Of a DNA stretch of 64,000 bases, positions 6,949-38,745 are shown in pieces (position 1 is the stretch's first letter; every line of letters begins with the position of its first letter). The position numbers and the translations under genes were made by a program. This DNA comes from an uncultured virus (IMG/VR IMGVR_UViG_3300042879_002288). Its lineage: Duplodnaviria > Heunggongvirae > Uroviricota > Caudoviricetes > Crassvirales. The stretch is taken from the IMG/VR virus record IMGVR_UViG_3300042879_002288. One strand, given 5' to 3'. The notes under the pieces are model-generated. The model was not told the DNA's origin. It worked only from the letters and a program-made list of their open reading frames with translations, and did not search any database.

Positions 6949-7004
6949 TACGGCAGAGCGTATACTGCGCTATAACACAATATAACTCTGCAAATATAAA
7001 TAAA

Positions 7005-14051: not shown

Positions 14052-14056
14052 TTAAT

Positions 14057-16266: not shown

Positions 16267-16599
16267 TTAATTAAGTGATATAAATCCGTCGAACAGGTCG
16301 TCTGTCGCAGACAGTCTATTTTTTTTCTTAGATTCTTGGTTTTCTTTCTCGTACACCTCCACGGCGTGGGACATCATGTCGAACATCTCCTGCGAGTCTG
16401 CCACGTTAAATAGGTACATGGCCTCTATATTTGCCTGCTCATCCTCGTCGAAGTCACGTATGACTGAAACTATATTTACAAGGATTACGTCCTGTCTTAC
16501 GTCGAGGCTATCTGCAAGGTCGTCTATCTGAGACAGAAGATTCTTGGCCTTAGTCATAAACATATTAAGTTTAATATCACGCTCAAGTCTTCCTTTCAT
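16267..16599 (-). CDS. Hypothetical acidic protein
   Basis: 110-aa ORF preceded by TATTTTTG-N5. Confidence 0.7.
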   Translation of the reverse strand: MKGRLERDIKLNMFMTKAKNLLSQIDDLADSLDVRQDVILVNIVSVIRDFDEDEQANIEAMYLFNVADSQEMFDMMSHAVEVYEKENQESKKKNRLSATDDLFDGFISLN

Positions 16600-16624
16600 G
16601 GCTACAAAAATAAAGAAACAATTT

Positions 16625-17023
16625 ATGTTCCGTGAGTTCCTGTATAAAGATAAGGAAACGCGGGAGTCAAACTATCTGAAGTACCACAAGATGGTTAAGA
16701 AGTCTGTGGTAGACGAGCACGACATAAACAACTCTATCCTGGATTTTTTGGTGTGGGCATATGACATGGAGTTCTTCACCACCAGGCACGTTTGCAAGGA
16801 CCTGAAGATGCGTCAGAGCAACTACTATGAGCGGGTGATTATGATTGCCCTACGCAAGGGACTTATATATCATTACTTCAAGCGTATGGAAACCTTCAAC
16901 ACGTTTGAGGGCGCACAGTTTCGGGAGGACGGGGGACACAGCTACAGGGTTAGGTACGCCCTTACCCAGCGTGGGAGGATGATTGTAAAGAAGTTCTACG
17001 ACAGACTTCAGAAGGGAGAGTAG
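16625..17023 (+). CDS. Winged-helix (MarR-like) DNA-binding protein
   Basis: Helix-turn-helix segment, LRKGLI, YALTQRGR wing; start uncertain (alternative 16598). Confidence 0.6.
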   Translation: MFREFLYKDKETRESNYLKYHKMVKKSVVDEHDINNSILDFLVWAYDMEFFTTRHVCKDLKMRQSNYYERVIMIALRKGLIYHYFKRMETFNTFEGAQFREDGGHSYRVRYALTQRGRMIVKKFYDRLQKGE

Positions 17024-17662: not shown

Positions 17663-17760
17663 AAGTGGATTTTGAGCAAAGATAAAAAATTTTTTCATCC
17701 GCACACAATACCGATTGTCGTCCTGCGTTTCGATATTAGATAAACCCAAAAACCTCTCTC

Positions 17761-20333: not shown

Positions 20334-20337
20334 GTAG

Positions 20338-20368
20338 CAAAGTTACAGACTTTTTTGGCAAAAGTCAA
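20338..20368 (-). promoter_or_regulatory. Bacteroidota housekeeping promoter with palindromic spacer
   Basis: TTG-N20-TAACTTTG; spacer holds GACTTTT-N5-AAAAGTC. Confidence 0.7.
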
Positions 20369-20897
20369 GTGGCGAAATGGGTTGTAAACCACAGTTTTAG
20401 GAATTTTGTGAATGGCAAGTTTATGAAATTAACACTTGTTAACAATTAGCAGGGCTCATGGGGGTCAATTAACTGCCTCATGTACCACAGTAACCAAGGA
20501 GCGTATAATTCGACGAGGGCAAAAAATTATAAGATTTACTCTCGTTGGGTGAACGAGGGCAAAAATTACCGAGTTATATAGGGGTAGGGGATTATATATA
20601 ATTACGGACGTACGCGGGTGGGGTCCGGAACGCAAATGCGCGACCCCGTGGGTACGCACGCACGCGCAGTCGCGGCATCTTTTTACCTTTTGGATTTCCC
20701 GGCATTGCTAATGGTAACAAGACCGCAGATTGTGTTAGTATTTGTGTTTGGACGCAATACAAATTGCAAGTAAATCGATGAGGGAGATGCAATTGCAAAT
20801 GTAACTCGCTGATTGCTAATAGCAACAAGGCAGGATTGTCCCCTCCCCATCTCTTCACAACCTTTAACATACCTCACATACGAGAACACGACATGGC

Positions 20898-21003
20898 TGC
20901 GTTGCGCGTGCCCGTGTGCGCGTAGCGCGTATCGCGTGTGCATGCGTAGCGCATGTGCGCGATGCGTGCGCATGTCGCGCGGTGCCTATCCTGCGAGATG
21001 CGT
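20898..21003. repeat. Alternating purine-pyrimidine (CG/TG/CA) tract
   Basis: gcgcgtg..gtgtgcgcgt..gcgcgt..cgcgtgtgcatgcgt..gcgcatgtgcgcg..tgcgtgcgcatgt. Confidence 0.8.
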
Positions 21004-21203
21004 CTGTGGCGCTGTGGGCGCTGTGGAATGCCTGCAAACAGCGAGCAGGTCTGTTAACGGATGTTAAAATCCACTTTGCAACCATCTGGTTTTCAGCCAG
21101 TTGAAAAAAACTTTCATGGGGCACATACCAAAGGTCCATGCCTTGACGTCATATCAGCAGACGGGGAGGACGAGCCAAACCGCACACCACACACACAGAC
21201 AAC

Positions 21204-21545
21204 ATGTCTAACAAACTCCACACCAACTACGTCAAGCTCACGGGACGTGAACTGACCATTCTCGACGAGATGACCAACTTCATGGGTCAGCGCATCCTGC
21301 TCGTAGAGCACCCCATCCATGGGGATGAGGCACCCGTCATCGCAATCTGCCGCGAGCACATGATGAAGGTAGGTCCGCTCGAATACGTCTACGGAGCGGC
21401 GGCGAACACGGATTTCTTCGACACCGACGACATGTACGAAGGCAGTGACTACGAACCTCTCTTCATCGGCGACAAACTAACCTACCGCTACGTTATTGAC
21501 AACTACGACAAGCTCCACATCTCCCCATTAGGCGGCGAACTCTGA
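21204..21545 (+). CDS. Early hypothetical protein
   Basis: First ORF of the + strand block; (AC)n leader. Confidence 0.75.
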   Translation: MSNKLHTNYVKLTGRELTILDEMTNFMGQRILLVEHPIHGDEAPVIAICREHMMKVGPLEYVYGAAANTDFFDTDDMYEGSDYEPLFIGDKLTYRYVIDNYDKLHISPLGGEL

Positions 21546-21903
21546 ACCCATCATCGGGGAGCGGGAACCGCTCGCTCCCCACCATCACCCTCAAACACAC
21601 ACACACCATGTCCACCACATCAATCTCCCGCCGCTCTCCCGTCATGCTCACATTCAGTGACGGAACCTACATGTTGTCCATTCGGAAGCACATCCAATTT
21701 GGCCACTACATCGTGGAACTGCGGGACCCCGATAACATAGCGATTCACGAGCAAAGGTTCGAATCGATGGCCGATGCATGCGGGTTCGCGGAACGTTTGG
21801 GAGGCGGAACATTCCAAGTAATCTGCAACATCCAACTCTGAACCCATCACGGGGAGCGGGAACCGCTCGCTCCCCTTCATCACCCATCAAACACACACCC
21901 ATG
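21538..21903 (+). repeat. Two ~70-bp direct repeats (21538-21610, 21834-21903) containing a GC hairpin
   Basis: AACTCTGAACCCATCA(T)CGGGGAGCGGGAACCGCTCGCTCCCC..CATCACCC(A)TCAAACACACAC..ATG. Confidence 0.9.
21608..21841 (+). CDS. Early hypothetical protein
   Basis: 77 aa bounded by the two repeats. Confidence 0.7.
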   Translation: MSTTSISRRSPVMLTFSDGTYMLSIRKHIQFGHYIVELRDPDNIAIHEQRFESMADACGFAERLGGGTFQVICNIQL

Positions 21904-21999
21904 CTCTACACAATGGAATCCTACGCATCGCTCATGTTCCCAACAATGCTGTGCATCTCTGCTGTCTTGTTGTTAATCTATGAGCGCAAACAACAATAA
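21901..21999 (+). CDS. 32-aa hydrophobic peptide
   Basis: MLYTMESYASLMFPTMLCISAVLLLIYERKQQ after an AAACACACAC leader. Confidence 0.55.
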   Translation: MLYTMESYASLMFPTMLCISAVLLLIYERKQQ

Positions 22000-22040
22000 T
22001 CCAAACATCTCTCACGTTAACCCATCAAACACACACAGCT

Positions 22041-22220
22041 ATGAATAGAGTGGAAATCGTCGGCACGAAGTTCAAGGTATTGATTGACTTCTTACCAATT
22101 ACGAATCAGTACTACGTTTCTGTCATCAGCGTCAAGCACGACCTGCTCATCGGCACAACGCAGTACGGCACCCATGAGGAGGCGTACGCATTCGTGGGAA
22201 ACGTCATGGACATCCAATAA
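22041..22220 (+). CDS. Early hypothetical protein, 59 aa
   Basis: Hand-translated MNRVEIVGTKFKVLIDFLP...NVMDIQ after motif and leader. Confidence 0.65.
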   Translation: MNRVEIVGTKFKVLIDFLPITNQYYVSVISVKHDLLIGTTQYGTHEEAYAFVGNVMDIQ

Positions 22221-22251
22221 ACCATCATTACCCATCAAACACACAGAAAAC

Positions 22252-22551
22252 ATGTCATCATACATCTCAACCATCTACGTGTTCGACACGCTGTCCATCG
22301 CAGGATGCTACCTTCCTGCTCTCATCAACGGAGATGCATCGGGCATCGACGACAACGAATTCGCTGAACTCGACAAGTTCCTGATGGAACTACGCAACAG
22401 AATTCGTGAGCGCCACGATGCCGACGAGGAGATTAGCTATGACCTTGTGGTGACAAGTGACGAGTCATTCATAGGCATGTGCGAAGTTAGTGGGCTGTAC
22501 TCTGACTGCCACGATGTGAATGTGATTGCACATGTATCTCGTCGGTCATAA
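22252..22551 (+). CDS. Early hypothetical protein
   Basis: YLPALINGDASG; start reassigned to the ATG after the leader. Confidence 0.7.
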   Translation: MSSYISTIYVFDTLSIAGCYLPALINGDASGIDDNEFAELDKFLMELRNRIRERHDADEEISYDLVVTSDESFIGMCEVSGLYSDCHDVNVIAHVSRRS

Positions 22552-22615
22552 AAAAGTTGCATCAGCACACAATAAACAGATTCCTCATAACGTTAACCTA
22601 TCAAACACACACACC

Positions 22616-22765
22616 ATGAACAATCAAGAGATGCTGTTTTACGCACACAATTTCAAGGGATTTGCGGTTTCCGTTCGAGCAAGGAACGAAAGAGATGCAA
22701 GAGAATTCTTCCGCAATCACTTTGCAGTGAAGACATTGAGAGGATTCGAAATTTGGAGAGGATAA
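22616..22765 (+). CDS. Early hypothetical protein, 49 aa
   Basis: Start reassigned after motif and leader. Confidence 0.65.
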   Translation: MNNQEMLFYAHNFKGFAVSVRARNERDAREFFRNHFAVKTLRGFEIWRG

Positions 22766-22815
22766 CACACAATAAACAGAAATCACTACACGTTAATCTA
22801 TCAAACACACACACA

Positions 22816-23073
22816 ATGGAAACTAACATTCAAAAATTTCTCGCCGAGAACTTCGATGCAGTTCAGGTGAAGCGGTCAGTGCAGGACGATGAATACGTCA
22901 TCCTATGCACCTTGCCAACTCTGCTCGATGTAGCTAAAGTTCAGTTCGGGAGCGAGGAGTACCACGAATTGTTCGATGCCATGCAGGAACTATTCGAATG
23001 CCCAGTATTTGTCAGCGACTACGACGATGTGGTAGCCGTAAGTGAAGATTTCTTTGAAAATTACTACCAATAA
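22816..23073 (+). CDS. Early acidic hypothetical protein
   Basis: Start reassigned after motif and leader. Confidence 0.7.
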   Translation: METNIQKFLAENFDAVQVKRSVQDDEYVILCTLPTLLDVAKVQFGSEEYHELFDAMQELFECPVFVSDYDDVVAVSEDFFENYYQ

Positions 23074-23122
23074 GCACAATAAACATCAATCACCACACGT
23101 TAACCTATTAAACACACAGACC

Positions 23123-23365
23123 ATGAAAGTTCAAGATTTGATTTGCTACCTTGACCTGAATCCGAAATACGAATGGGTTGAGATGGAATTCTTTGGCCGA
23201 AGAGTACTTGACTGGGCATTCCTCGGGAAAGAAGGAGCAATGGATTTCTTGCATGGCATTGAACCACAACGCCACGAGTCCATGTCTTTCCACATCGTCG
23301 GAACAAAGGATGGAGACGTATTAAGAGTTGATGTGGTAGAGAAAAAAAACAACGTCACACAATAA
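23123..23365 (+). CDS. Early hypothetical protein
   Basis: Start reassigned after motif and leader. Confidence 0.7.
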   Translation: MKVQDLICYLDLNPKYEWVEMEFFGRRVLDWAFLGKEGAMDFLHGIEPQRHESMSFHIVGTKDGDVLRVDVVEKKNNVTQ

Positions 23366-23407
23366 ACAGATTCCCTCTCACGTTTAACATTCAAACACAC
23401 ACACACA

Positions 23408-23710
23408 ATGAACACGATTCTTTTCGAAACAGAAGCAAACAAGCGTGCGTCAGACGCACGATTGGCCAAGTCAAAGAAGCAGGTTGTTGACTACATGGTC
23501 ATCCTCGTAGAGGAACTGGAGTCCTTGAACGAAGAACTGCTACGAATCAAGGCATTGCAACAGATGAATGCCATGTGCGTCTTGAGCGGCAGTGAGTCAG
23601 CGCCAACAGAAGAAGTTGAGTCCCTTGATAAACGGGAGCAAGAAATTCGCATGGAGATTACGAACAAGAAGAATTACCTCATCGTCCTCATCGAATCTCA
23701 AGCACAATGA
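23408..23710 (+). CDS. Early coiled-coil protein
   Basis: 100-aa ORF after motif and leader. Confidence 0.7.
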   Translation: MNTILFETEANKRASDARLAKSKKQVVDYMVILVEELESLNEELLRIKALQQMNAMCVLSGSESAPTEEVESLDKREQEIRMEITNKKNYLIVLIESQAQ

Positions 23711-23874
23711 TTAACGCACTCTTGACCTTCAGGAACTCTGCCGGACGCACCTTCGGTAGCCCAAAGAACTTCTCTGACCAAACGCACATCGATAACTACA
23801 TCAACTTCATGATGCGTAAAGGACACAAGTTCGTGGACATCTTCTACGCAGACGACAACGATGCACCACAATAA
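23707..23874 (+). CDS. Early hypothetical protein, 55 aa
   Basis: Hand-translated MINALLTFRNSAGRTFGSPK...DDNDAPQ; ATGA overlap. Confidence 0.65.
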   Translation: MINALLTFRNSAGRTFGSPKNFSDQTHIDNYINFMMRKGHKFVDIFYADDNDAPQ

Positions 23875-23914
23875 ACGCACCCAGTCAAACGTTAAACAAT
23901 AAACACACACAGCT

Positions 23915-24151
23915 ATGATTACGACATCAAATTCAAAGGTCTCTGTTTCGGACATCATCCGTTACGAGGAAGGGGACATGACCGTACGGGAGATGGTATA
24001 CTTCTTCTCCCTGCTCATCAGGTCAGGCATGTTGAACAGGATGCAGGGTTCATACGGACGTATGGCATCGCAGATGCTCCAGTACGGATTGCTCGATGCG
24101 AGCGGTCAGGTGAACCGCGATAACCTCGAAGAGTTTATCAGCAGATTTTAA
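23915..24151 (+). CDS. Early hypothetical protein
   Basis: IIRYEEG...LIRSG...QGSYGRMA. Confidence 0.75.
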   Translation: MITTSNSKVSVSDIIRYEEGDMTVREMVYFFSLLIRSGMLNRMQGSYGRMASQMLQYGLLDASGQVNRDNLEEFISRF

Positions 24152-24180
24152 CATCTGTTAACACAACAAACCCACACACA

Positions 24181-24630
24181 ATGTCAGTTCAATCAATCTC
24201 CAACCTGATGCCGAGCAAGGCATACTTGGACACCATTCGTAACGGCGGCATCTCCGTCAACCACAGAGGAGAGACACCCCCATCCACGGGATTCATGGTA
24301 GGCGGTGCTGACGAGGACAGCGAGAGCCACATCGTACAATTCACGGATTTCTATGAGTTCTCCCGTGTGTTCGAACAACTGCTCACAAAGTTGAGCAACC
24401 TGCCGGAACCGGAGCGCGAATGCATGTACGTTGGCACGTGGTTAAACAACAACTTTGTTGACCAATCACGTCCATCGCCGCTCACTATCATCGAGTTGGA
24501 GTTGTCTATGCACATCTCCTCACTTGAGAAAGCCATGAAGCTTGGCAAGGCGTTCAATCAGTTGTATATCTATGACCTTGCGGAAGGCAAGAGCATCAAG
24601 GTAGAAAAAGATGTGCCTCAAGCACAATAA
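24181..24630 (+). CDS. Hypothetical protein, possible SAM-lyase-like fold
   Basis: GG.S..TGFMV...YVGTW...ELS...A..LG..FNQ..IYDL. Confidence 0.6.
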   Translation: MSVQSISNLMPSKAYLDTIRNGGISVNHRGETPPSTGFMVGGADEDSESHIVQFTDFYEFSRVFEQLLTKLSNLPEPERECMYVGTWLNNNFVDQSRPSPLTIIELELSMHISSLEKAMKLGKAFNQLYIYDLAEGKSIKVEKDVPQAQ

Positions 24631-24670
24631 ACCATTCAGGTAACCCGTTAATTAAGAAACACACACAGCC

Positions 24671-25198
24671 ATGAAAACAATTCAAATCGGTTCACAAGTG
24701 TGGACTACAAAGAACCTGCGAGTATTCAAGTTTCGCAATGGAGACCCCATCCCGATTATTCAGGACAACGAGGAGTGGAGCAAACTCGAATCACCTGCCA
24801 TGTGCATCAACCCTGACAACGGAGAATGTTACTACAACTGGTACGCAGTCAACGACTCGCGATGTCTTGCACCTATAGGATTCCATGTGCCTTCAAATGA
24901 CGAGTGGCAACAGCTTGTTGACTACTGCGGTGGTAATGAGAAAGCGGGCAACTTGTTGAAATCGACGAAAAAGTGGGATGGCGCAGGAGCCTCCAAAGGA
25001 TTCAATGCTATCCCTTCAGGCTTCCGAGCCCACTACAACGGGAACTTCTACGACCAAGGCAACAACGGGCATTGGTGGTCTTACTCCCCGAGTGGAGCAG
25101 ACGCTTGGTATCGCTGGCTGTGCTTTGAAGACCCGTATGTCTTCCGTGACTACTCCAACCAACGAAACGGCTTCTCTGTACGCTTAATCAAAGATTAA
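24671..25198 (+). CDS. Fibrobacter succinogenes major paralogous (CLec-fold) domain protein
   Basis: IQIGSQVW..KNL, YNWYAV, P.GFHVPS..EW, WWS, GFSVRLIKD. Confidence 0.9.
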   Translation: MKTIQIGSQVWTTKNLRVFKFRNGDPIPIIQDNEEWSKLESPAMCINPDNGECYYNWYAVNDSRCLAPIGFHVPSNDEWQQLVDYCGGNEKAGNLLKSTKKWDGAGASKGFNAIPSGFRAHYNGNFYDQGNNGHWWSYSPSGADAWYRWLCFEDPYVFRDYSNQRNGFSVRLIKD

Positions 25199-25209
25199 AA
25201 CACCCAACT

Positions 25210-25749
25210 ATGAAAACTATTCAAATTGGTTCACAAGTGTGGACAAGAAAAAACCTCCGAGTGTTCAAGTTCCGTAACGGAGACCCTATCCCAATCATTC
25301 AGGATTCCGACGAGTGGGCATTATCTCAAGAAGCCGCTATGTGTATCAACCCTTACAATGGAGAATGCTATTACAACTGGCATGCTGTCGCTGACAAACG
25401 AGGTCTTGCCCCCAAGGGATTCCACGTTCCGTCAGATATGGAGTGGTATACGTTAATCAAAGTATACGATGGTTTTGATGTCGCGGCTAAATTGTTGAAG
25501 TCCCCTAAAAAGTGGGATGGCGCGGGAGTCCCCAAAGGATTTAATGTCAAAGGATTCGATGCCATTCCAAGTGGATACCGCACACACAATGGCGACATCA
25601 TCACTCGCGAATACAGCGGGTTTTGGTGGACTTCCACTCCATGTGGTTCAGAAGCATTTTGCTACTACATGTTCTCTGGGGTCTCGATTGCACACCGAGA
25701 TAGCGGCACCTTTCGAAACGGCTTCTCTGTCCGCTTAATCAAAGATTAA
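25210..25749 (+). CDS. Second Fib_succ_major domain protein (tandem paralogue)
   Basis: Same motifs as 24671..25198. Confidence 0.9.
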   Translation: MKTIQIGSQVWTRKNLRVFKFRNGDPIPIIQDSDEWALSQEAAMCINPYNGECYYNWHAVADKRGLAPKGFHVPSDMEWYTLIKVYDGFDVAAKLLKSPKKWDGAGVPKGFNVKGFDAIPSGYRTHNGDIITREYSGFWWTSTPCGSEAFCYYMFSGVSIAHRDSGTFRNGFSVRLIKD

Positions 25750-25760
25750 AATACACAGCC

Positions 25761-25988
25761 ATGAAAATCTACGTTCAAGCAAACAGCAAGAAAGAAGTGA
25801 ACAACTGGCTCGCTTCAGGAATCCACATCTACGGATATAACTATTCGATGTTCGAGGATGCAGGATGGCACGACATCTCAAACCTGAACGATGGGGATGT
25901 AGTGGCCATCTTCTCCAAGACGATGAACGGCTCCCCAGTCCCAAAGTCATGGGGTTCCTATGATGCCAAGAAGAACAGATTAAAGTGA
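25761..25988 (+). CDS. Hypothetical protein
   Basis: 75 aa; ACACAGCC-ATG leader. Confidence 0.7.
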   Translation: MKIYVQANSKKEVNNWLASGIHIYGYNYSMFEDAGWHDISNLNDGDVVAIFSKTMNGSPVPKSWGSYDAKKNRLK

Positions 25989-26042
25989 TGGGCGCACAAT
26001 AAAAGACACACGACACACGTTACATAATAAACACACACAGCA

Positions 26043-26282
26043 ATGTCACAAGAAAAGAAATACCCCAACGGACTGCGAGAGTACCTTGAGACACTCGTCA
26101 TGATGTCAGTTGAACTGGAGGCAAGAGACCTGCCCATGCATCTCATCAACTACATAGACCATGCTATCGATTGGTCGGAAGAGTTTGAGAAGATGTACAG
26201 CGGCAGAAACATGAGGATATGGGATGGTGATTGGTTGGATGCAATCCAAGAATTTGTAGATAAAAAGATTTCAGAATCATGA
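26043..26282 (+). CDS. Hypothetical protein
   Basis: 79 aa after motif and leader. Confidence 0.7.
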   Translation: MSQEKKYPNGLREYLETLVMMSVELEARDLPMHLINYIDHAIDWSEEFEKMYSGRNMRIWDGDWLDAIQEFVDKKISES

Positions 26283-26452
26283 ACGAACTGCCTGAAGATG
26301 AGTTGATTGAGTTGGCCGAAGGCCCCAACAACGACATAGCTAACGCCGCTATGAATGAGCTACGCAGACGATTCGATGCATCATACGGATGGTGCCCCGA
26401 ACTTGACTACGCAGTTGTCAAACGAGAAGAGTGTGAGAAACTAACCCAATAA
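26279..26452 (+). CDS. Hypothetical protein, 57 aa
   Basis: Hand-translated MNELPEDELIELAEG...CEKLTQ; ATGA overlap. Confidence 0.6.
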   Translation: MNELPEDELIELAEGPNNDIANAAMNELRRRFDASYGWCPELDYAVVKREECEKLTQ

Positions 26453-26462
26453 TAAAAAAGAA

Positions 26463-26699
26463 ATGAAGCAGACAGCAGTAGAGTGGTTATGGGACGCTTT
26501 AGACAATATTCTTGAGTTATACCCCAGCGAATGGGAAAAAATAAGTAAGGTAGTAGAGCAGGCCAAAGAGATGGAGAAGGGGCAGATTGAACAGGCATTT
26601 AATGAAGGAAGAGAAGAAAGAGATTACAATGGTAGTATCTGGGAATGTAAAAGTGGATTAGAGTACTTCAACCAAACCTTTAACACTGAAGAGAAATGA
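26463..26699 (+). CDS. MKQTAVEWL-type small phage protein
   Basis: MKQTAVEWL...EQAKEMEK.QI...YFNQTF. Confidence 0.75.
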   Translation: MKQTAVEWLWDALDNILELYPSEWEKISKVVEQAKEMEKGQIEQAFNEGREERDYNGSIWECKSGLEYFNQTFNTEEK

Positions 26700-26914
26700 A
26701 AACCCCAGTCGAACAACTGATTGAGAACATTCGGCAACGTGCCACACTTCTGAAAGAAGGAAATAAAACAGAACGACACAATAGTAGGATTCTGTTTAAC
26801 GTTGCAAGTACAGCAAGACGGTTCCTCGAAATCGAACGAGAGTTCATCGAACAGGTCCGAACGGGTATAGATGCGCCCGAAAAGGATGAAACTATACCCG
26901 ATAGCGCCCAGTAA
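26696..26914 (+). CDS. Hypothetical protein
   Basis: ATGA-coupled ORF. Confidence 0.65.
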   Translation: MKTPVEQLIENIRQRATLLKEGNKTERHNSRILFNVASTARRFLEIEREFIEQVRTGIDAPEKDETIPDSAQ

Positions 26915-26941
26915 TAATCAATCGCCCCTAAAATTCACGTC

Positions 26942-27244
26942 ATGGGAATGCACAAAGAAACCAAGGACAAGATAACAACGCTAACTGAATGCTTTGAGTT
27001 AGTGATTTGGATGGCCATCAGATATGCAGATGGTCGCCATACCTACGCACCGGGAGATGTTAGGCATGCAATCAAGATGTTCCAAAGTGTGTACCCATCG
27101 TGGAAGCCACAGACAGACATCACGATTAAGAAACCAAACCTCACGGATGAACCCGAACTCTTCTACGAGTCAGACCACTTGTGGGATTTAGTAAACAACG
27201 AAAATGAACGAAACCAAGAAGACGTACAAGGAGATGTACCTTGA
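26942..27244 (+). CDS. Hypothetical protein
   Basis: AIRYADGRHTYAP. Confidence 0.7.
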   Translation: MGMHKETKDKITTLTECFELVIWMAIRYADGRHTYAPGDVRHAIKMFQSVYPSWKPQTDITIKKPNLTDEPELFYESDHLWDLVNNENERNQEDVQGDVP

Positions 27245-27425
27245 GCAGAACGAGGAACGTAACCTCGACGGATACCTGAAGGGCGACCTTGCCATCCTGT
27301 TCGACATCATCCACCCCTACCAAATGTGGAGCGAACTGGACAACACCAAGTTCAGCATGAAGGTGTCCTTCAAGGAACGATACGAACCACAACTGCATCT
27401 CTTTTTTGATAACCCTGTAACCTGA
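27204..27425 (+). CDS. Hypothetical protein
   Basis: 73-aa ORF in operon. Confidence 0.6.
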   Translation: MNETKKTYKEMYLEQNEERNLDGYLKGDLAILFDIIHPYQMWSELDNTKFSMKVSFKERYEPQLHLFFDNPVT

Positions 27426-27451
27426 ATTAAACAAGTTACTATATTCGCCAC

Positions 27452-27688
27452 ATGATTGCAGATGTGGTATTTAAGAACGCATACGGGGCAGATGTCTGCC
27501 TCACCATCCACGATGTTAACGACAGCGACAACTGGCACTTCGTTACATCCTCAATAGACAACCAATCTTATGCCATCAACATCTTCAGAGAGTCAGAGTC
27601 AATGCGATGCTACGTCCACTACGTCTACGGAGCAGACGACATCGACCATCTCAAGCGATTCGAACCCGAATCATTTTCAATCGTTTGA
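27452..27688 (+). CDS. Hypothetical protein
   Basis: TATATTCG-N4-ATG. Confidence 0.6.
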   Translation: MIADVVFKNAYGADVCLTIHDVNDSDNWHFVTSSIDNQSYAINIFRESESMRCYVHYVYGADDIDHLKRFEPESFSIV

Positions 27689-28268
27689 CGAGACCCTCGC
27701 CAACTACGAGCAGGAACTTCACAAACGTGTGTGTTTCAATCAGATAACTGCTGTACGAAATACTTTCTACGCAATTACTGGGCACCACGACAATAAAAGC
27801 AGGAAGGAGTACGTTGTTAAACCAAGGGCGGCACTGCTCTGCGCCTTGTCCACCAAGTACACACTAACTGACGTGGCAAAGGCGTTTGACATACACCACG
27901 CCACGGTGATTCACCACCGCAAGCACCACGAAGGAAACCTATCAGCATGGAAGGGATACAAGGAAATCTTTGACAAAGCAATTCAAACACTTCATTCAAT
28001 GCCATTCATCAAGTCAACGTCCTTCCCGGACAACCCACCCAAGTCGTTCAACGAGTGGCAGGAACACCTGCTCGAACAGCGCCGTCAAATCTTCGAAAGA
28101 AACATAGGCATGGTAAACATCACGGATGAGATGTCCTCACAGCAGGACATGGTAGACAAAGCGAAACTCCTTGACCGCATGTTGAAGGAGATTCGAGAGG
28201 GTGCAGACCTGAACTCTGCGGCACAGCGCGTATTAAATGATGCTATCAATTACGGATTCACCAAATGA
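27570..28268 (+). CDS. Protein with DnaA domain-IV-like HTH
   Basis: TLTDVAKAFDIHHATVIH resembles the DnaA_C motif; true start uncertain. Confidence 0.6.
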   Translation: MPSTSSESQSQCDATSTTSTEQTTSTISSDSNPNHFQSFDETLANYEQELHKRVCFNQITAVRNTFYAITGHHDNKSRKEYVVKPRAALLCALSTKYTLTDVAKAFDIHHATVIHHRKHHEGNLSAWKGYKEIFDKAIQTLHSMPFIKSTSFPDNPPKSFNEWQEHLLEQRRQIFERNIGMVNITDEMSSQQDMVDKAKLLDRMLKEIREGADLNSAAQRVLNDAINYGFTK

Positions 28269-28465
28269 AAAGCAAGCGAAAGTTCGTGTTCATCTTCACC
28301 CCATTGTCGATAGACATCGCGGATGATGCATTCAGGTTTTCTATCTGCGAGATAATCACAAGGTCAGGCATGGCTTCGAGCCTGTTCTCTGTGGGCTACA
28401 TCAAGTATCGACACCGCAACGTGTACTACATGGACTTGTTCTTTGCGCGATTCAGCAACCTATGA
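28265..28465 (+). CDS. Hypothetical protein
   Basis: ATGA-coupled ORF. Confidence 0.55.
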   Translation: MKSKRKFVFIFTPLSIDIADDAFRFSICEIITRSGMASSLFSVGYIKYRHRNVYYMDLFFARFSNL

Positions 28466-28674
28466 ACGACCAGCTCATGTACGCTGTCACCGCCACACGG
28501 AACAGCCACCTCGAGGTCCTCACGTTCCCCATCGGGGTATTCGACGACAAGGACACGGCCATCGAAAGTGCCCGCAATCACAAAGAGCAGTTCGGGAAAC
28601 ACTACGATTACTATGTCTATGAGTTCACAAAAAACTTGGTGAATACGAGTTCACCACCTATCTTCGTTGTCTAA
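28462..28674 (+). CDS. Hypothetical protein
   Basis: ATGA-coupled; IGVFDDKDTA. Confidence 0.65.
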   Translation: MNDQLMYAVTATRNSHLEVLTFPIGVFDDKDTAIESARNHKEQFGKHYDYYVYEFTKNLVNTSSPPIFVV

Positions 28675-28697
28675 TCACAATTCAATCCAATAGAGTT

Positions 28698-29030
28698 ATG
28701 GCACAGGAGTTAAAGGACGAAAAGGTCATGGAATGGGAGGCCCTCGAGTTAGGGGTCGCTCAATGGGCCAAGGACAGGGGACTGCTCAAACGTGAGAATG
28801 CCCCAGCGCAGATGATGAAGGTCGTGGAGGAACTCGGCGAACTTGCCGCGTGTATCGCCAAGCGAAAGCGTGCCTCCACCACGGCGGATGCAGTTGGTGA
28901 CGTGCTGGTCACTATCATCATCCTCTCGTATCAGCTTGGCATCGACCCCCAGTATGCCCTCGACCTCGCGTACAACGAAATCAAAGACCGCGCAGGGAGC
29001 ACCATCAACGGAGTATTCATCAAGAAATGA
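28698..29030 (+). CDS. MazG-like nucleotide pyrophosphohydrolase
   Basis: KVVEELGELA...DAVGD...AYNEIKDR.G..INGVF. Confidence 0.88.
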   Translation: MAQELKDEKVMEWEALELGVAQWAKDRGLLKRENAPAQMMKVVEELGELAACIAKRKRASTTADAVGDVLVTIIILSYQLGIDPQYALDLAYNEIKDRAGSTINGVFIKK

Positions 29031-29201
29031 ACGACCTTGAAATCAACTACATCTACACAAGAGGAAACTCTTGGTACATCACGCCGTCAGCGGCAGTCGC
29101 GAACTGGAGGGGCGAAACATACTACGCCATCGAAAGTCGCGTTAGAGAATGAAGTGACAGCAACTCAAATTCACGAGCCACAAGCTCAAAAACACAATTC
29201 A

Positions 29202-29822
29202 ATGTCCATTTTCATTAAGCTGGCTTCCGTTCAGGCGGAGCTAAAGGCCCCCAAGGGCCAGTTCAACTCCTTCGGGAAGTATAAGTATCGTTCATGTGAG
29301 GACATCCTCGAGGCTGTCAAGCCCTTGCTTCACAAGTACGAACTGGGCATGTCCATCAACGATGATATGATGGAAGTCGGTGGTCGTGTATACGTCATGG
29401 CAACGGTAACTGTCTTTGACTATGATGGGAACCTACATAGCGTCAGCGCCTCTGCCCGTGAGGAGGAGACCAAGAAAGGCATGGATGCCTCACAGGTGAC
29501 TGGAGCCACATCCTCCTATGCACGAAAGTATGCCCTCAACGGGATGTTCCTCATCGACGACACCAAAGACAGCGATGCCACAAACACCCACGGCAACGAA
29601 CCAGCCCAGTCACATGGACGTGTGCCCGTAGGCGGAGCGGCGGCACGTGACGCCATCGCAGAGGAAGAATCCAAGCAGGAACCCATGTCCATGATGGACA
29701 AGGCCGTGGCCTACCTGAAGTCAGCCACAGACCGCAAGACAGCCTACGACAGCGTGATGAAGCACTACGGCGCACAACTGACTGACAATCAGAAGGAAGC
29801 CCTGAAGAAGTTCGTCCGATGA
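29202..29822 (+). CDS. erf: ERF-family ssDNA-annealing protein
   Basis: LKAPKGQFNSFGKYKYRSCEDILEAVKP...TGATSSYARKYAL. Confidence 0.9.
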   Translation: MSIFIKLASVQAELKAPKGQFNSFGKYKYRSCEDILEAVKPLLHKYELGMSINDDMMEVGGRVYVMATVTVFDYDGNLHSVSASAREEETKKGMDASQVTGATSSYARKYALNGMFLIDDTKDSDATNTHGNEPAQSHGRVPVGGAAARDAIAEEESKQEPMSMMDKAVAYLKSATDRKTAYDSVMKHYGAQLTDNQKEALKKFVR

Positions 29823-30607
29823 ACTTGCCCCAACTCCTCGAGGCTCGGTACGGGAAACCGCACCTGTCCTACAGTAGCCTCAAGCAATCGCTTGACGACA
29901 TCGCTCGGTTCGATGCGTACATGAAGAAAGAGATTACATACAAGTCCGATGCCCTTGACTTCGGAACCCTGTACGACATGCTCCTTTTCGAACGTGACAA
30001 GGCCATGGAGACCTACATAATCGTGGACCACGAGTACATCCTCGAGCGTTGTTCTGCGGCCACCCAGTCCACCAAGTCACCCAAGGCCACCAAGGAGTAC
30101 AAGGAGGTCAAGGAAGCCATCGAGAACGACCTGACCGCAAACGGCAAGGTCCTTTGTAACCCAGACGACTGGAAGACGGCCAACGACATGATTGACCGAC
30201 TGCACACCTGCGGAATCACCAAGGAGTACTTCGCTGGTGACTACCAGGTTCCAATCATGAAGAACATCCTCGACATCAAGGTCAAGGGATTCATCGACTG
30301 CTGGGACAAAGGGAGGTCCATGGTGGTGGACAGCAAGTCCACACGAAGCATCAGTGGATTCCGTTATGACGTAGGCAAGCTGTCTTACGACATCCAAGCG
30401 TACCTGTACATGCAGGCCACGTCAGCAAAAGAGTTCTACTGGGTTGCACAGGAGAAGGATTACCCCTACCTTCCCGCTGTCGTCAAGTGCAGCGAGGAGA
30501 CGCTCTTCAAGGGTGAGATGAAGACCCGAGCAGCCATAGCACGAATCAAGGATTTCCTTAAGAATGACACAGACCCTAAATCAGATTTTGTCACCTATGA
30601 GGTCTAA
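29819..30607 (+). CDS. PD-(D/E)XK RecE-like exonuclease
   Basis: LSYSSLK, FGTLY, KGFID, DSKST, YDIQAYLY. Confidence 0.85.
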   Translation: MNLPQLLEARYGKPHLSYSSLKQSLDDIARFDAYMKKEITYKSDALDFGTLYDMLLFERDKAMETYIIVDHEYILERCSAATQSTKSPKATKEYKEVKEAIENDLTANGKVLCNPDDWKTANDMIDRLHTCGITKEYFAGDYQVPIMKNILDIKVKGFIDCWDKGRSMVVDSKSTRSISGFRYDVGKLSYDIQAYLYMQATSAKEFYWVAQEKDYPYLPAVVKCSEETLFKGEMKTRAAIARIKDFLKNDTDPKSDFVTYEV

Positions 30608-30700
30608 AACCAAAGAAAGAATCAAGGACATCGCAGAGAACGTCCTAATCATCGCAACCCTATTCCTATTCCATCTTTTAATCACCAATTTTGTTGAGCA

Positions 30701-31018
30701 ATGAGCAAAGAAAAGAGCTATGACAGCGTCCTGATGGGATTCGCTGATGAGCCGAAGTACAACAACGGACAGCTGGTTAGCTGGCGCGTAAAGCTTCGGG
30801 ATTTCGAAATCAAGGAAATCCTTGACCGATACCTATCCAAGAATGCTGAAGGCAAGGGCCAAGCATACATCACCATGTTCATGAGTAAAGAAGGTAAGCC
30901 TTTTGCTCGCGTGTACAACCCCAACAGCGAGTCAGCCAAGGAATACCGCGAAAAGAACATGAAGCAGAATGAGCGGGCCGCTACCCCAGTCGCTGAAGAC
31001 AACGACCTACCATTCTAA
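30701..31018 (+). CDS. Probable ssDNA-binding protein
   Basis: Acidic EDNDLPF tail; located in the recombination cluster. Confidence 0.6.
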   Translation: MSKEKSYDSVLMGFADEPKYNNGQLVSWRVKLRDFEIKEILDRYLSKNAEGKGQAYITMFMSKEGKPFARVYNPNSESAKEYREKNMKQNERAATPVAEDNDLPF

Positions 31019-31361
31019 GATTCTCGGCTGTCTGTGTGTGATTGAATGGGGGTTGAGGGACATTGTGTTCCTCAGCCCCTCTTCTTTCGAAGCCGAGGCG
31101 AATGGAAAGCGATACACCTTCCACGCATGCATCATCGAACACTTCAACACCATGGTAGATATACCTGTATTTGAGGAGGACTTCTTAGTGATGTGCATAG
31201 CAAACAAGTCAGGTGACAACACCATCGTGCTCACCCATGATGACTGCAAGGAGGTAATGGGAACGTCTGTGGACTTTCACTGGGTGGCAGGATTCATAAA
31301 GAAAAGAATGAGCGTCACCGTTACCAATGAACAAAAACAGCCTACCGATTTACTACGTTGA
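30969..31361 (+). CDS. Hypothetical protein
   Basis: ORF fills the operon gap; start uncertain. Confidence 0.5.
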   Translation: MSGPLPQSLKTTTYHSKILGCLCVIEWGLRDIVFLSPSSFEAEANGKRYTFHACIIEHFNTMVDIPVFEEDFLVMCIANKSGDNTIVLTHDDCKEVMGTSVDFHWVAGFIKKRMSVTVTNEQKQPTDLLR

Positions 31362-31578
31362 ACTCACCGTGACATACAAGCACGGAAAGAAAGAGATGAC
31401 AAAGGACGTGTGGTGCATAAGCCACAGCACGGATGTGCTTGACATCATGGACGACCCCCTGTCAGTCTCAACCATGGAGAGGCAGATATACTCCTCTACA
31501 TACAAATCTGAAAAAAGAATCACAATTAAAAAAGTACGGACATGGAAACAACTCGGAATGACGAACCACAGCAGGTAG
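31327..31578 (+). CDS. Hypothetical protein
   Basis: 83-aa ORF. Confidence 0.65.
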   Translation: MNKNSLPIYYVELTVTYKHGKKEMTKDVWCISHSTDVLDIMDDPLSVSTMERQIYSSTYKSEKRITIKKVRTWKQLGMTNHSR

Positions 31579-31793
31579 ACATGGTCAACAGCCCCAATCA
31601 CTACAGGTCGTTTCCCAAAGAGACATGGGAGATGATGATTGACATCTGGGGTGTAGACAACTTCGTCGTATACTGCGAGATAAACGCCTTCAAGTACAAG
31701 ATGCGTGCAGGTGAGAAGCCCGGCCAGTCAGTTGAGCAGGACCTGCAAAAGGCTGAATGGTATCTGAAGAAGGCAAACGACTACAGGAAATGA
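31542..31793 (+). CDS. DUF3310-like protein
   Basis: VNSPNHY...NAFKY..RAG.K...DLQKAEWYL. Confidence 0.85.
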   Translation: METTRNDEPQQVDMVNSPNHYRSFPKETWEMMIDIWGVDNFVVYCEINAFKYKMRAGEKPGQSVEQDLQKAEWYLKKANDYRK

Positions 31794-33574
31794 AAGTAAC
31801 CCTGTATCGGTCTATCCACGACACGGATAAACCATACCATATCCATATGGACGTGGCGCTGGACAGAATCCAGCAGGGCAAGTCCAAGGACACCGTAGAG
31901 CGGTTCCGTACGAGCAGGGAACGGGAGGATAAGATGTCCCTTCCCGTGGTGCTGTGGAGCGGCACGTTCAACAAGCGCTCCGACAGCGAACTTGTGGAGC
32001 ACAGCGGATACATAGTCCTTGACTTCGACCACATCGACGTTCAGGCTGGGAAGACGCAGGTGGGTTCCGACCAATACGTCAGAGCCTGTTGGGTGTCCCC
32101 TTCTGGGGATGGACTCAAGGCCCTTGTGAAGGTCACCAACCCTGAGCGCCACAGAGACCATTTCAGGGCTATCAAGGCATACTTCAGTAAGTCGTATGGG
32201 CTGGAGGTAGACGAGACGGGTATCAACGAATCACGGGCTTGTTTCGAGTCATATGACTCAGACATCATCGTCAAGGACGAGAGCACCCCGTTTGGAGGCC
32301 TGATAACCAAGCACAGCGAGGAACAGACTCCAAGCCAGCCATATGTCTACACAGACTACATGAAGCTGAATCTGGCCGCACGTATGATTCGTCAGGCACA
32401 GGACGGGGAGAAGCACAGCACGCTGCTCAAGGCCTCACGCCTGTGTGGTGGGTATGTGTCTGCTGGGCGCATGGAGGAGGAGGAGGTCATCAGAGTTCTG
32501 TTCCGTGAGATACAGAAGCGGGACATAGACTCCGAGGAGCATGCCCTCACCACCATCCGTGCAGGACTGGAGGCGGGCAAGAACGCTCCACTTCGGGACA
32601 TCATCAACGACGAGAAGTCGGTCACACGGGAACTGCTCATCAACGATGGGGACATGTCGTTCATCTCGTCAGACGACTCTGACTATAGGATGATTGATGA
32701 CTTTGTCAATGGAAAGATTCTGATTGGTCTGGACACAGGGGACCCCAACCTCGACAAATACTTCAGGTACAAGCGAGAGTTCGTCATCATCAACGGCCAC
32801 AGCAACGTGGGCAAGACGACAATGGCGCTATACATGATGGTCAATGCCAGCCGTAGACATGGGTGGAAGTGGGTGCTCTACTCCTCTGAGAACAGCACGT
32901 GGTCAGTCAAGATGACGCTGATGGAGTTCGCCACGGCCATGCCCATCAAGACTCAGAATTACGAGCAACGCAAGGAGGCATACCGCTGGGTCAATGACCA
33001 CTTCACTATCATCAACAACAATCAGGTGTACAGCTACTCTGACATCATCCTATTCATGGAGAAGGTACGCAGGATTCAACACGTGGATGCTGTCTTTGTA
33101 GACCCGTACAACAGCCTAAAGATTGACCTCAAGAACACGGCCATAGGCGTCCATGACTACCACTACGAGGCAGCCTCAGAGTTCCTGACGTACAGCACGG
33201 CCAATAATATAGCCGTGTGGCTCAACATGCACGCCGTGACGGAGGCCCAGAGACGCAAGGGCGACGATGGTCTCCCGATAGCCCCGTATGCTGAGGACAC
33301 CGAGGGCGGTGGCAAGTTCGTAAACAGGGCAGACTGCTTCATCACCATCCACCGCAAGGTGCAAGCCCCTGACATGCAGACACGTAGGACCACTGAGCTA
33401 CACGTCAGGAAGGTGCGTGAGGTGAAGACAGGTGGGCAGCCCACACCTCTGGATGAGCCAGTCACGTACGCCATGAACCCGACCATGACAGGATTTAGGG
33501 CGCTGAGCACTGGTAACGAACTGTTTGAGCCCATAGGCCTGGACTTCACGAGATACCAAGTATTTAACGAATGA
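31790..33574 (+). CDS. Primase-helicase (VirE_N/BT4734-like primase plus SF4 helicase)
   Basis: K.SLP, LDFDH, SPSGDGLK; GHSNVGKT Walker A; FVDPYN. Confidence 0.88.
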   Translation: MKVTLYRSIHDTDKPYHIHMDVALDRIQQGKSKDTVERFRTSREREDKMSLPVVLWSGTFNKRSDSELVEHSGYIVLDFDHIDVQAGKTQVGSDQYVRACWVSPSGDGLKALVKVTNPERHRDHFRAIKAYFSKSYGLEVDETGINESRACFESYDSDIIVKDESTPFGGLITKHSEEQTPSQPYVYTDYMKLNLAARMIRQAQDGEKHSTLLKASRLCGGYVSAGRMEEEEVIRVLFREIQKRDIDSEEHALTTIRAGLEAGKNAPLRDIINDEKSVTRELLINDGDMSFISSDDSDYRMIDDFVNGKILIGLDTGDPNLDKYFRYKREFVIINGHSNVGKTTMALYMMVNASRRHGWKWVLYSSENSTWSVKMTLMEFATAMPIKTQNYEQRKEAYRWVNDHFTIINNNQVYSYSDIILFMEKVRRIQHVDAVFVDPYNSLKIDLKNTAIGVHDYHYEAASEFLTYSTANNIAVWLNMHAVTEAQRRKGDDGLPIAPYAEDTEGGGKFVNRADCFITIHRKVQAPDMQTRRTTELHVRKVREVKTGGQPTPLDEPVTYAMNPTMTGFRALSTGNELFEPIGLDFTRYQVFNE

Positions 33575-33611
33575 TATTATATAACCATAGCTGTATTATA
33601 TATTTGTGGTC

Positions 33612-34196
33612 ATGCATAGAAAAAAAGGGTCGGGTACGACTCCTCGTGCAAACACAAGGAAGAGACAGCTTGGGAAGTATAAGTCTCAGTTAGAGAAGTA
33701 CTGCGCTGAAAGACTTCAGCAGGAAAATCTAAACTTTATGTACGAGGGCAGGGAGTACGTGCTGCAAGAGTCATTCAACTACAACGGGGTGTACTACAAG
33801 ATGACAAGAGGGAGCAAGGACCTCGTAAAGAGAACCAACTCACACATCCTCCCCATCAAGTACACACCAGACTTCGTAGGAACTGAATACAACTTCGTCA
33901 TAGAAACCAAGGGTTTCATACACGAACAGCATACCTTTCAGCTCAGATGGAAGATGTATTTGGACTACCTTTGTAAAAGCGGGGAACCTCTCCCCGCTCT
34001 TTTCTTACCCAAAAATAAGCAGCAGGTAGACGAGTGCATTAACATAATTTTAGATTTAATACACGATGAACGAATACAAACTCTCGGAGATGTACGCGAT
34101 GGCCACTCAAAAAATGGCAGACGCGGTAACAGAACTCTACGAAGACCTTCACAATCAGGACGGCAGACCGATTTTCAAGAGGGAGAAGATTTCTGA
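33612..34196 (+). CDS. T7 endonuclease I-like resolvase
   Basis: KSQLE, YE, YTPDF, IETKG. Confidence 0.75.
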   Translation: MHRKKGSGTTPRANTRKRQLGKYKSQLEKYCAERLQQENLNFMYEGREYVLQESFNYNGVYYKMTRGSKDLVKRTNSHILPIKYTPDFVGTEYNFVIETKGFIHEQHTFQLRWKMYLDYLCKSGEPLPALFLPKNKQQVDECINIILDLIHDERIQTLGDVRDGHSKNGRRGNRTLRRPSQSGRQTDFQEGEDF

Positions 34197-34278
34197 AGGG
34201 ATGGCTAAGTTTAGAAAGGCTGTCACTTTGGAGATTGACCTCGTAAAGCAGGCTGCGCTTGAGTTCCAGGGCAAGTAA
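34066..34278 (+). CDS. Hypothetical protein
   Basis: 70-aa helical ORF. Confidence 0.6.
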   Translation: MNEYKLSEMYAMATQKMADAVTELYEDLHNQDGRPIFKREKISEGMAKFRKAVTLEIDLVKQAALEFQGK

Positions 34279-34291
34279 GTTCAAGTCTTCC

Positions 34292-34753
34292 ATGGCCGTA
34301 GGCCTGAAGGGGGAGGTCATGTGGGCGGAGCACCTCGCATCAAAAGGACACGATGTGGTGTTCTCTGACGCTGGGGTAAACTATTGGGACCTTATGGACT
34401 CGATGGGCAACTACTACGAGGTGAAGCTTGACGAGAAAGCTATGTACTATGCAAAGAAGCACAACAGGCCTCCCAACATGTTCCTTGAGTACTGGAGCAC
34501 CAAGAGGAACAGCTTCTGCGGTGTCATGGTACTGGAGGTGGATTTCTTCGTGTACATAATCAAGAGCCTTGAGAGGCTATATACAGCGTATGTATTTGAT
34601 TATCCGGTATTTCTGAATCACCTGTCCGTCACAAAATACCCATCAAGAGATAATAGTTCCACTGGAGACAATAATGCTCTTGGGTATGTCGTTCCTATAG
34701 AGACGTTGACAAAATCTGAAGAAACAGGATTCATAAAATCTGTCATTCTTTAG
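34292..34753 (+). CDS. PD-(D/E)XK-like protein
   Basis: G..GE, WDL, YEVK.D, N.FLEY; start uncertain. Confidence 0.6.
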   Translation: MAVGLKGEVMWAEHLASKGHDVVFSDAGVNYWDLMDSMGNYYEVKLDEKAMYYAKKHNRPPNMFLEYWSTKRNSFCGVMVLEVDFFVYIIKSLERLYTAYVFDYPVFLNHLSVTKYPSRDNSSTGDNNALGYVVPIETLTKSEETGFIKSVIL

Positions 34754-34788
34754 TATCTTGCAAGCCGTTTCTCTCTAAAAAACACATC

Positions 34789-37070: not shown

Positions 37071-37078
37071 ATGCAAAT

Positions 37079-38287: not shown

Positions 38288-38745
38288 CGTTTATTGAGTC
38301 TTACTTTTTCATATGAGCGTCCGGCAAAGTATGCTGTGAATGCAGTTGTCATTAAAACACTAAATACATCTATATATGATTCATTTATGTTAAATCCCAC
38401 ATTTTCAATACTGTCGGTAACCACAAATATAGTAAATGAAAGTATCAGATACATTAAAATCATAGGCCTTATATTCTTGGATAGCCACGAGTCGGACATC
38501 ATATCTGACTTCCATCGTTCAGTCACGTTGTCCTGAGCATTGGACTCATACTCCATGAGCATCTTCTCGAACTCCATCTTCTCCTGAGCAGTCATGTTTG
38601 GCTCAAGGTCTATGAGTCTCTTGACCACACCAAGAGCCCCCTGGTCTGGAAGCAGCTCTCCAACTGTTTCCAGAACGTCAGGGGCCTTGTCCTTCAGCCA
38701 GATTCCGACCTTGGTATCCTTAATCTTCTTTCGGTCCTTTCTCAT
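38284..38745 (-). CDS. Holin (GTA 3TM-like)
   Basis: RW..DM.SDSWLSKNIRP, TM helices, AYFAGRSYEK. Confidence 0.75.
   Translation of the reverse strand: MRKDRKKIKDTKVGIWLKDKAPDVLETVGELLPDQGALGVVKRLIDLEPNMTAQEKMEFEKMLMEYESNAQDNVTERWKSDMMSDSWLSKNIRPMILMYLILSFTIFVVTDSIENVGFNINESYIDVFSVLMTTAFTAYFAGRSYEKVRLNKR

Follow-up and report, generated by a model that had tools for sequence, protein, structure and literature searches.

The DNA described here is a stretch of 64,000 nucleotides from an uncultured virus of the Crassvirales (IMG/VR record IMGVR_UViG_3300042879_002288), which as a whole will be called the window. The element under study is a repeated motif, ACAAT-N17-CGTT, which lies before many of its early genes and has the properties of a promoter for sigma factors of the extracytoplasmic function (ECF) type, namely two conserved boxes, a CGT in the -10 box and a fixed spacing of 16–17 nt. 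The window belongs to a crAss-related podophage of Bacteroidota, with portal, terminase, capsid, ring and crAss muzzle genes on its minus strand; the terms early and late are used on the basis of gene content and strand. The genome is partial, the scaffold gene being cut at position 64000, and compared with the almost colinear relative G004 (65 kb, rated complete) the window misses only the beginning of the scaffold gene and a few small genes of the late block. The early block and the copies of the motif are as follows.

21204..36684, plus strand: early and replication block, with small genes, ERF, exonuclease, primase-helicase, nucleases and a class II ribonucleotide reductase (RNR)
17705..17729, plus strand: copy whose spacer has 16 nt, preceding 17761-18306, a 181-aa signal-peptide gene, on the early strand within the late block
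21125..21150, plus strand: degenerate first copy, ATACC-N17-CGTC, a putative promoter before the first early gene at 21204
21993..22018, plus strand: promoter copy 1, ECF-type ACAAT-N17-CGTT, with a 14-nt A/C leader and ATG at 22041
22569..22594, plus strand: promoter copy 2, with a 13-nt leader and ATG at 22616
22769..22794, plus strand: promoter copy 3, ATG at 22816
23076..23101, plus strand: promoter copy 4, ATG at 23123
23359..23384, plus strand: promoter copy 5, overlapping the upstream stop codon, ATG at 23408
23868..23893, plus strand: promoter copy 6, ATG at 23915 of a DUF7417 gene
24624..24649, plus strand: promoter copy 7, ATG at 24671 of the first of two Fib_succ_major genes
25996..26021, plus strand: promoter copy 8, ATG at 26043
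26778..26803, plus strand: copy inside the open reading frame (ORF) 26696-26914, a probable internal promoter with a predicted 130-nt leader to 26942
27790..27815, plus strand: in-ORF copy within the DnaA_C-like helix-turn-helix (HTH) gene 27570-28268
34668..34693, plus strand: in-ORF copy 87 nt before the RNR start at 34789, retained in relative G051

A preliminary description, made from the letters alone, had reported ten copies of the motif, eight of them before a leader and an ATG, and both counts stand. The whole window holds 12 exact matches, all on the plus strand, whereas shuffled sequences give a mean of 0.45 and a maximum of 4, and none of 100 shuffles reaches 12. Ten matches lie within 21993-27815, the other two at 12908 and 34668, and CAATA-N16-CGTT is the top over-represented dyad of the 64 kb. 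When spacings of 10 to 25 were scanned, only 17 was enriched (12 on the plus strand, none on the minus strand), with one match each for 15, 16 and 20. The spacing had been called invariant, which does not hold for the family, as 16 nt are found at 17705 in the window and in many of the copies of relatives. The arrangement at 17705 also occurs in G004 and G050.

Eight copies are followed by a AAACACACA-type leader of 13–15 nt and then by an ATG. Since these eight have cACAATAAAC and aCGTTaa in common, the spacer, although variable as had been stated, is not entirely free. If the start geometry of Flavobacterium psychrophilum is applied, the predicted +1 is an A in all 12 copies and the start of the leader in eight. 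At the position equivalent to 21125, G004 has ACAAT-N15-CGTT. The motif itself had been proposed to be selected inside ORFs. The three in-ORF copies (26778, 27790 and 34668) exceed chance, with at most two in 5000 synonymous-codon resamplings; the motif is found at homologous codons in only one of eight homolog comparisons (34668, in G051 alone), and these copies are thus lineage-specific. The copy at 27790 is a probable internal promoter for the recombination and replication genes downstream.

The same pair of boxes is known from mapped host promoters. Start mapping in F. psychrophilum defined an ECF motif, named SM6 and containing a CGT box, in front of genes of T9SS, the secretion system of type IX (Guerin et al., PMC9723704). 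By a tally made by eye of supplement 3 of that paper, ten of the 19 high-confidence SM6 rows have CGTT at -12 to -9 and an ACAAT-like box 16 nt upstream; they belong to gldN, porU, rmlB, Rfp11, yceA, a PG0189 homolog, a TPR gene and three others. Exact ACAAT-N16-CGTT is present in three of these promoters (gldN, rmlB and Rfp11), and gldN and rmlB read ACAATAA. Four rows make up a class of their own, with GTAAC, to which the ECF gene THC0290_1774 belongs, and five fall outside both classes. The supplement thus appears to hold two classes, ACAAT/ATAAT/ATACT-CGTT before T9SS genes and GTAAC-CGT before band 7, ABC and ECF genes, and this split suggests two sigma factors; in the portions of the paper at hand, SM6 is kept as one motif and its ACAAT subclass is not assigned to a sigma factor. 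In seven phage sequences the GTAAC -35 class is at chance level, with 0–3 per strand.

Metagenomic host loci allow an independent comparison. Starting from 67 porP-family loci, 14 with a divergent porU start were obtained, of which 11 were kept after dropping three near-duplicates; the identity of porU was confirmed by NCBIfam (NF033707) for 12 of the 14 and by near-identity for two. The strict motif occurs between -250 and +60 of porU in four of the 11, against one of 283 other genes (p 5e-6). With the -35 set derived from SM6, the figures are 10 of 11 against 12 of 283 (p 6e-12), with one of 11 on the wrong strand and a spacing of 16 in eight cases and 17 in two, although GCAAT joined this set after the porU loci had been seen, which leaves the strict count unaffected. 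Three Bacteroidota megaplasmids contained no gldN and no excess of the motif (2, 2 and 2, against 2, 2 and 3 in controls). As judged by its boxes and their spacing, the phage motif is the same class of host promoter that precedes T9SS genes. Taken with the porU test, the hundred-plus distinct phage copies give a sharp consensus for T9SS promoters, RCAATA-N15/16-CGTT.

The array is not a peculiarity of the window. Arrays of CAATA-N15/16-CGTT, with 6–13 copies on one strand, occur in seven of 50 records (G002, G003, G004 and G048–G051), the remaining 43 having 0–3 per strand, as in controls; because G002 and G003 were chosen by the motif itself, the unbiased count is five of 48. A broader scan of viral loci yielded at least 145 stretches, with at least 131 distinct sites, at least 71 with 17 nt and at least 60 with 16 nt. 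In six motif-positive genomes the motif precedes 38 of 197 early-strand ORFs but only two of 274 on the late strand. Motif and leader are alike in phages with 28–79% TerL identity and 38–52% GC content, which have no candidate regulator in common, and in a quick version of a capsid tree, from which six of 48 loci without a major capsid protein (MCP) were left out, the motif-positive phages stand in three places. The complete genome G006, from the window's own clade, has no array, and its first early gene is preceded by TAnnTTTG. Five motif-negative relatives were found to have no early dyad in common; in three of them, TAnnTTTG stands close to where the early region begins, in a context that looks non-coding.

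For the late genes, a host-type TAnnTTTG box had been proposed, and the counts agree with this.

6991..6998, minus strand: TAnnTTTG primary-sigma box before the portal gene
16612, 20090, 37081, 50520 and 59211, minus strand: TAnnTTTG boxes like the one before the portal gene

Such a box lies within 70 nt of eight of 36 hand-curated minus-strand (late) starts, against a background of 3.4% (p 2e-5), and of one of 37 plus-strand starts (33612); the six genomes mentioned above have it before 53 of 274 late-strand and nine of 197 early-strand ORFs. The five boxes in the last line above, and one at 33599 on the plus strand, are only 3–5 nt from the ATG, which implies leaderless or near-leaderless late mRNAs. 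A sigma-70 consensus scan of 20000-37200 returned 20 sites, compared with 18.5 in shuffles.

The absence of a recognisable sigma factor or RNA polymerase (RNAP), already noted in the preliminary description, has been borne out by wider searches, in which two further proteins deserve attention.

38720..47917, minus strand: 3065-aa polyvalent (LPD38) protein, probably virion-borne, with a centre of shuffled modules
16598..17023, plus strand: MarR-fold winged-helix protein, on the early strand within the late block

PHROGs and Pfam give no sigma or RNAP family among 70 window ORFs. Sigma70_r2 and TIGR02937 match nothing in five near-complete motif-bearing relatives, two of them with terminal repeats, while the controls were recognised; a single weak match to Sigma70_r4_2 in G003, at 12.6 bits, is below the cut-off. 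For G048, G051 and G004, 155 mid-sized ORFs are listed, and in 93 of these, including the G004 genes for the stretch missing from the window, PHROGs did not detect a sigma factor either. Most other ORFs of the 155 are homologs of window ORFs that had been scanned, and four that cross locus ends were skipped; the profile searches used could miss a very divergent sigma factor. By BLAST, no small gene is common to all motif-positive genomes. The 181-aa protein encoded by 17761-18306 has the right size for an ECF sigma factor but a signal-peptide-like start and no Pfam or Atlas hit, and was rejected as such.

An injected specificity factor had been envisaged as well. No candidate virion protein tracks the motif across relatives and the 3065-aa protein lacks DFDxD, so this branch is disfavoured; the pattern used (D[FY]DxD) was found neither there nor in the 2018-aa protein. 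The 3065-aa protein has no PDB sequence hit, and a model of its residues 1190-1950 (pLDDT 75.8) gave no Foldseek hit at E<=0.001 and no sigma or RNAP among the matches listed, which is a weak test of the folded centre. The largest module of this centre, of 400 aa, is common to the window, G004, G048 and G051; elemo phages that lack the motif have it as well, and searches of G050 and G003 did not find it. Residues ~1800-1940 are weakly similar to ADP-ribosyltransferase/RES folds (with an anti-CRISPR as the best match, at Z 6.5, rmsd 3.6 and 110 aligned), in a module that is shuffled among many relatives, and the centre also weakly resembles PUA/YTH folds (Z ~5), all these matches being under the tool's caution level. 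The MarR-fold protein is present in nine of 11 relatives examined (not in G003 and elemoA), and its counterpart in G051 has a weak MotA-like PHROG hit. As a specificity factor it was rejected, being present in motif-negative relatives too, and it is instead a candidate for an early-to-late regulator or switch.

We consider it likely that the early genes are read by the host RNAP with a T9SS-regulating, SigP-type ECF sigma factor, and the late genes with the primary sigma factor. This retains the combination of ECF-type early and housekeeping-type late promoters that was suggested earlier, and sharpens it to the host class found before T9SS genes. After entry of the DNA, the ECF holoenzyme would start about 9 nt past CGTT, giving the A-rich leaders of 13–15 nt, and would express genes for host takeover and replication; the late genes would next be read by the primary sigma factor, the switch perhaps being made by the conserved MarR-fold or HTH proteins. 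The host ECF factor would in this way do what in true crAss phages is done by the virion RNAP.

The reader of the motif is most likely a factor of the SigP/ECF228 type. In Porphyromonas gingivalis, T9SS genes are under the control of SigP, for which gel shifts gave a consensus whose end can be read as ACAATAA (PMC4800418); SigP belongs to ECF228, described as a Bacteroidetes group without anti-sigma factor (PMC7826278). An ACAAT/CGTT group was not found in the accessible parts of Todor et al. (bioRxiv 2020.06.23.168245) or of the Casas-Pastor supplement. No host emerged when the phage tRNAs, Fib_succ_major and M43 proteins were searched against plasmids, and no PorP was found in viral contigs.

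The activity of the host promoters in F. psychrophilum, as read by column order from the expression table of PMC9723704, suggests when such a phage could start. From ~4.0 in exponential broth, the Rfp11 signal rises to 7.7-9.3 in late growth, to 8.7-14.1 on agar and to 8.0-10.9 in water; with lysozyme, amoxicillin or peroxide it remains at 3.8-4.1. For porU it rises from 9.3 to 11.6-12.3 on agar or in water and to 11.3-11.5 in salt, and does not change with lysozyme, amoxicillin or peroxide. Since promoters of this class show low signals in exponential broth but high ones on surfaces, late in growth and in water, expression of the early genes may be gated to T9SS-active cells, which is more speculative than the choice of sigma factor itself. 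These data come from another species, but a gate set by host state fits them better than an infection-triggered envelope stress. The phage thus probably begins infection with an optional host sigma factor that would be active mainly in surface-grown or starved cells.

Several observations weigh against this interpretation, besides the late addition of GCAAT to the -35 set. The first early gene, at 21204, is preceded by merely a degenerate copy; only four of 16 gldJ upstream regions have a loose form of the motif; and the host copies favour a spacing of 16 nt, those of the window 17. As the gldN and rmlB signals scarcely vary by condition (PMC9723704), the gate by host state rests on Rfp11, porU and two ATACT-type sites. 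In the porT footprint, TACAATA lies at about -24 to -20 of the reported +1 and not at -33 to -29 (PMC8050853), a shift of ~9 nt towards the start; the motif class is therefore shown to be linked to the T9SS, and its assignment to SigP is something that we infer. In PMC9723704, THC0290_1774 or several ECF factors are proposed for SM6, and the promoter of THC0290_1774 itself is of the GTAAC class. Finally, a TerL search of GTDB gave two hits, both on contigs of Proteobacteria metagenome-assembled genomes and probably mis-binned, so that the T9SS and sigma factor of the host are presumed.

Other explanations can be given for the array. The copies could be middle promoters, if a first transcript from a primary-sigma-like or degenerate site yields a phage protein that activates or frees the host ECF sigma factor, by which the array would next be read. 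We regard this as unlikely, even though the ATACC-N17-CGTC before 21204, the occurrence of the motif before replication genes and the presence of two DNA-binding candidates (the MarR fold of 16598 and the HTH of 27570) would agree with it: no TAnnTTTG is present on the plus strand between 16426 and 33599, the corresponding first position in G004 is taken by a full ACAAT..CGTT site, and both regulators also occur in motif-negative relatives. The chances are smaller again for a divergent sigma-like factor or RNAP that the phage encodes or its virion injects, in the manner of phiEco32/7-11 or of crAss phages, with the likeness of the promoters explained by descent from a host ECF factor. In its favour are the few kb of genome that the window lacks, the subthreshold Sigma70_r4_2 match in G003 and the shared 400-aa module of the giant protein; it is opposed by the lack of a sigma match in the five relatives and the 93 ORFs, by the lack of a small gene common to all motif-positive genomes, by the distribution of the 400-aa module over motif-negative elemo phages but not G050 and G003, and by the missing DFDxD.

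The preliminary description had proposed, as one of two options, a stress sigma factor of the host, perhaps triggered by infection, and a general envelope-stress ECF factor as reader of the promoters is now to be seen as a rather remote prospect. In its favour, Bacteroidetes average 22.5 ECF factors per genome (PMC7826278), SM6 may have several sigma factors as readers, and RpoE of P. gingivalis also activates T9SS genes. Against it stand the indifference of Rfp11 and porU in F. psychrophilum to lysozyme, amoxicillin and peroxide (PMC9723704), the GTAAC promoters of the autoregulated ECF/anti-sigma pair, a class at chance level in the phages, and the motif predicted for the RpoE group, GAC / GGT(T|A)ACA. 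Least probable, to the point of being barely credible, is a repeat that is no promoter and has spread with shuffled genes only as a cassette for recombination or a signal for translation. The copies do flank hypervariable small genes, gene content differs even in G002, which is 95% identical to the window, and leaders are common to the copies; yet the spacer varies where the two boxes and the distance between them do not, the in-ORF copies without a leader still exceed chance, and the boxes are those of mapped host promoters. A reading as integron attC sites, for which the consensus is GTTRRRY, was dropped on inspection of the flanks, which do not fit.

Two further elements occupy the place of a promoter in the early block.

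21556..21580, plus strand: 10-bp GGGGAG..CTCCCC hairpin before the second early gene, 21608
21851-21875, plus strand: second, identical hairpin before the third early gene

The two hairpins (z -5.35 and -5.07) are possibly processing or stability signals; in other relatives, hairpins of this kind come after the first promoter. The signal-peptide gene 17761-18306 (plus strand), under its ECF-type promoter, converges on a 383-aa late gene at 18339-19490 (minus strand). This pair, possibly an effector-immunity or exclusion pair, is present in G004, G048 and G050 and not in the five motif-negative relatives. Elsewhere on the minus strand, ARAGORN makes six calls in 10443-10998, among them a tRNA with the anticodon TCA (called SeC) and Ile tRNAs whose anticodons are TAT and AAT, 11514-14995 holds four glycosyltransferase genes of the late block (GT2, GT17, GT2-TPR and GT-B like), also found in G004, and 37079-38287 encodes an M43 zinc peptidase with a dockerin-like tail that adjoins the holin. 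The nuclease-RNR segment is inverted in G004 (54553-57632) with respect to the window, and the in-ORF promoter before the RNR is absent there. No DNA polymerase gene was recognised among the 70 window ORFs scanned with PHROGs and Pfam.

The general view of lytic phages is that they begin with the housekeeping sigma factor or with a polymerase of their own. We found no report in the open-access literature of phage early promoters read by a host ECF factor. A wider proposal, about which we are undecided and lean slightly towards doubt, is that a widespread lytic crAss-related group gave its whole early programme to the host sigma factor of T9SS and gliding, that infection would succeed only or mainly in surface-attached or starved cells displaying T9SS-dependent surface proteins, and that sister lineages flip between this mode and early promoters of the primary-sigma type. 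If an early start on a dispensable host ECF sigma factor is confirmed, it would amount to a built-in checkpoint of host state, could explain why such phages are absent from culture collections isolated in broth, and would predict a post-entry route to resistance via loss of the sigma factor or of PorXY. Gliding-gene mutants of F. psychrophilum are described as phage resistant (PMC9804748).

The closest known counterpart of the array is the ACAAT/CGTT subclass of SM6 in F. psychrophilum, which has the same -35 ACAAT[AA], the same -10 CGTT, a 16-17-nt spacing and the same start geometry; its sites lie in a host, before gldN, porU and rmlB, whereas a lytic phage with 11-13 copies and 17-nt spacing is concerned here (PMC9723704). 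The PorXY-SigP system of P. gingivalis (ECF228) provides an ECF factor without anti-sigma factor that binds T9SS promoters with a consensus compatible with ACAATAA (PMC4800418, PMC8265659, PMC8050853, PMC7826278); in the portions of these papers at hand no -10 box is reported for SigP, and with the porT offset mentioned above the phage likeness is one of consensus only. The crAss-like phage phi14:2 has a related module of portal, terminase, capsid, ring and muzzle genes, and its non-early genes are read by the host RNAP, but it injects a DFDxD virion RNAP and its early transcripts are described as motif-less, while here no such RNAP was found and a clear ECF-type early motif is present (bioRxiv 10.1101/2020.03.07.982082). 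The nearest cultured phages are Elemovirus, Callevirus phi38:1 and the Pachyviridae phi18:3 and phi46:3, with TerL at ~40% (elemo), MCP at 27-32% and Flavobacteriaceae hosts; unlike the window, all five cultured or GenBank relatives are without the array and have 0-2 motif matches per genome.

The sigma factor of phiEco32 and Salmonella phage 7-11 reportedly serves middle and late genes, after host sigma-70 has read the early ones. In these podophages, as in the window, a promoter class for a small sigma factor organises part of the genome, with the difference that the factor is phage-encoded there, while in the present phage the order is the opposite one and searches found no sigma gene (PMC8948821). 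The phage described here belongs neither to these phage-sigma cascades, nor to the RNAP scheme of Crassvirales, nor to the systems wired to CtrA. With the CtrA-site phages of Alphaproteobacteria ('lytic deferment') it shares promoters that are wired to a host regulator of a surface appendage system, but CtrA is a response regulator that acts beside the primary sigma factor, whereas here the promoter itself would need an alternative sigma factor (PMC9437464).

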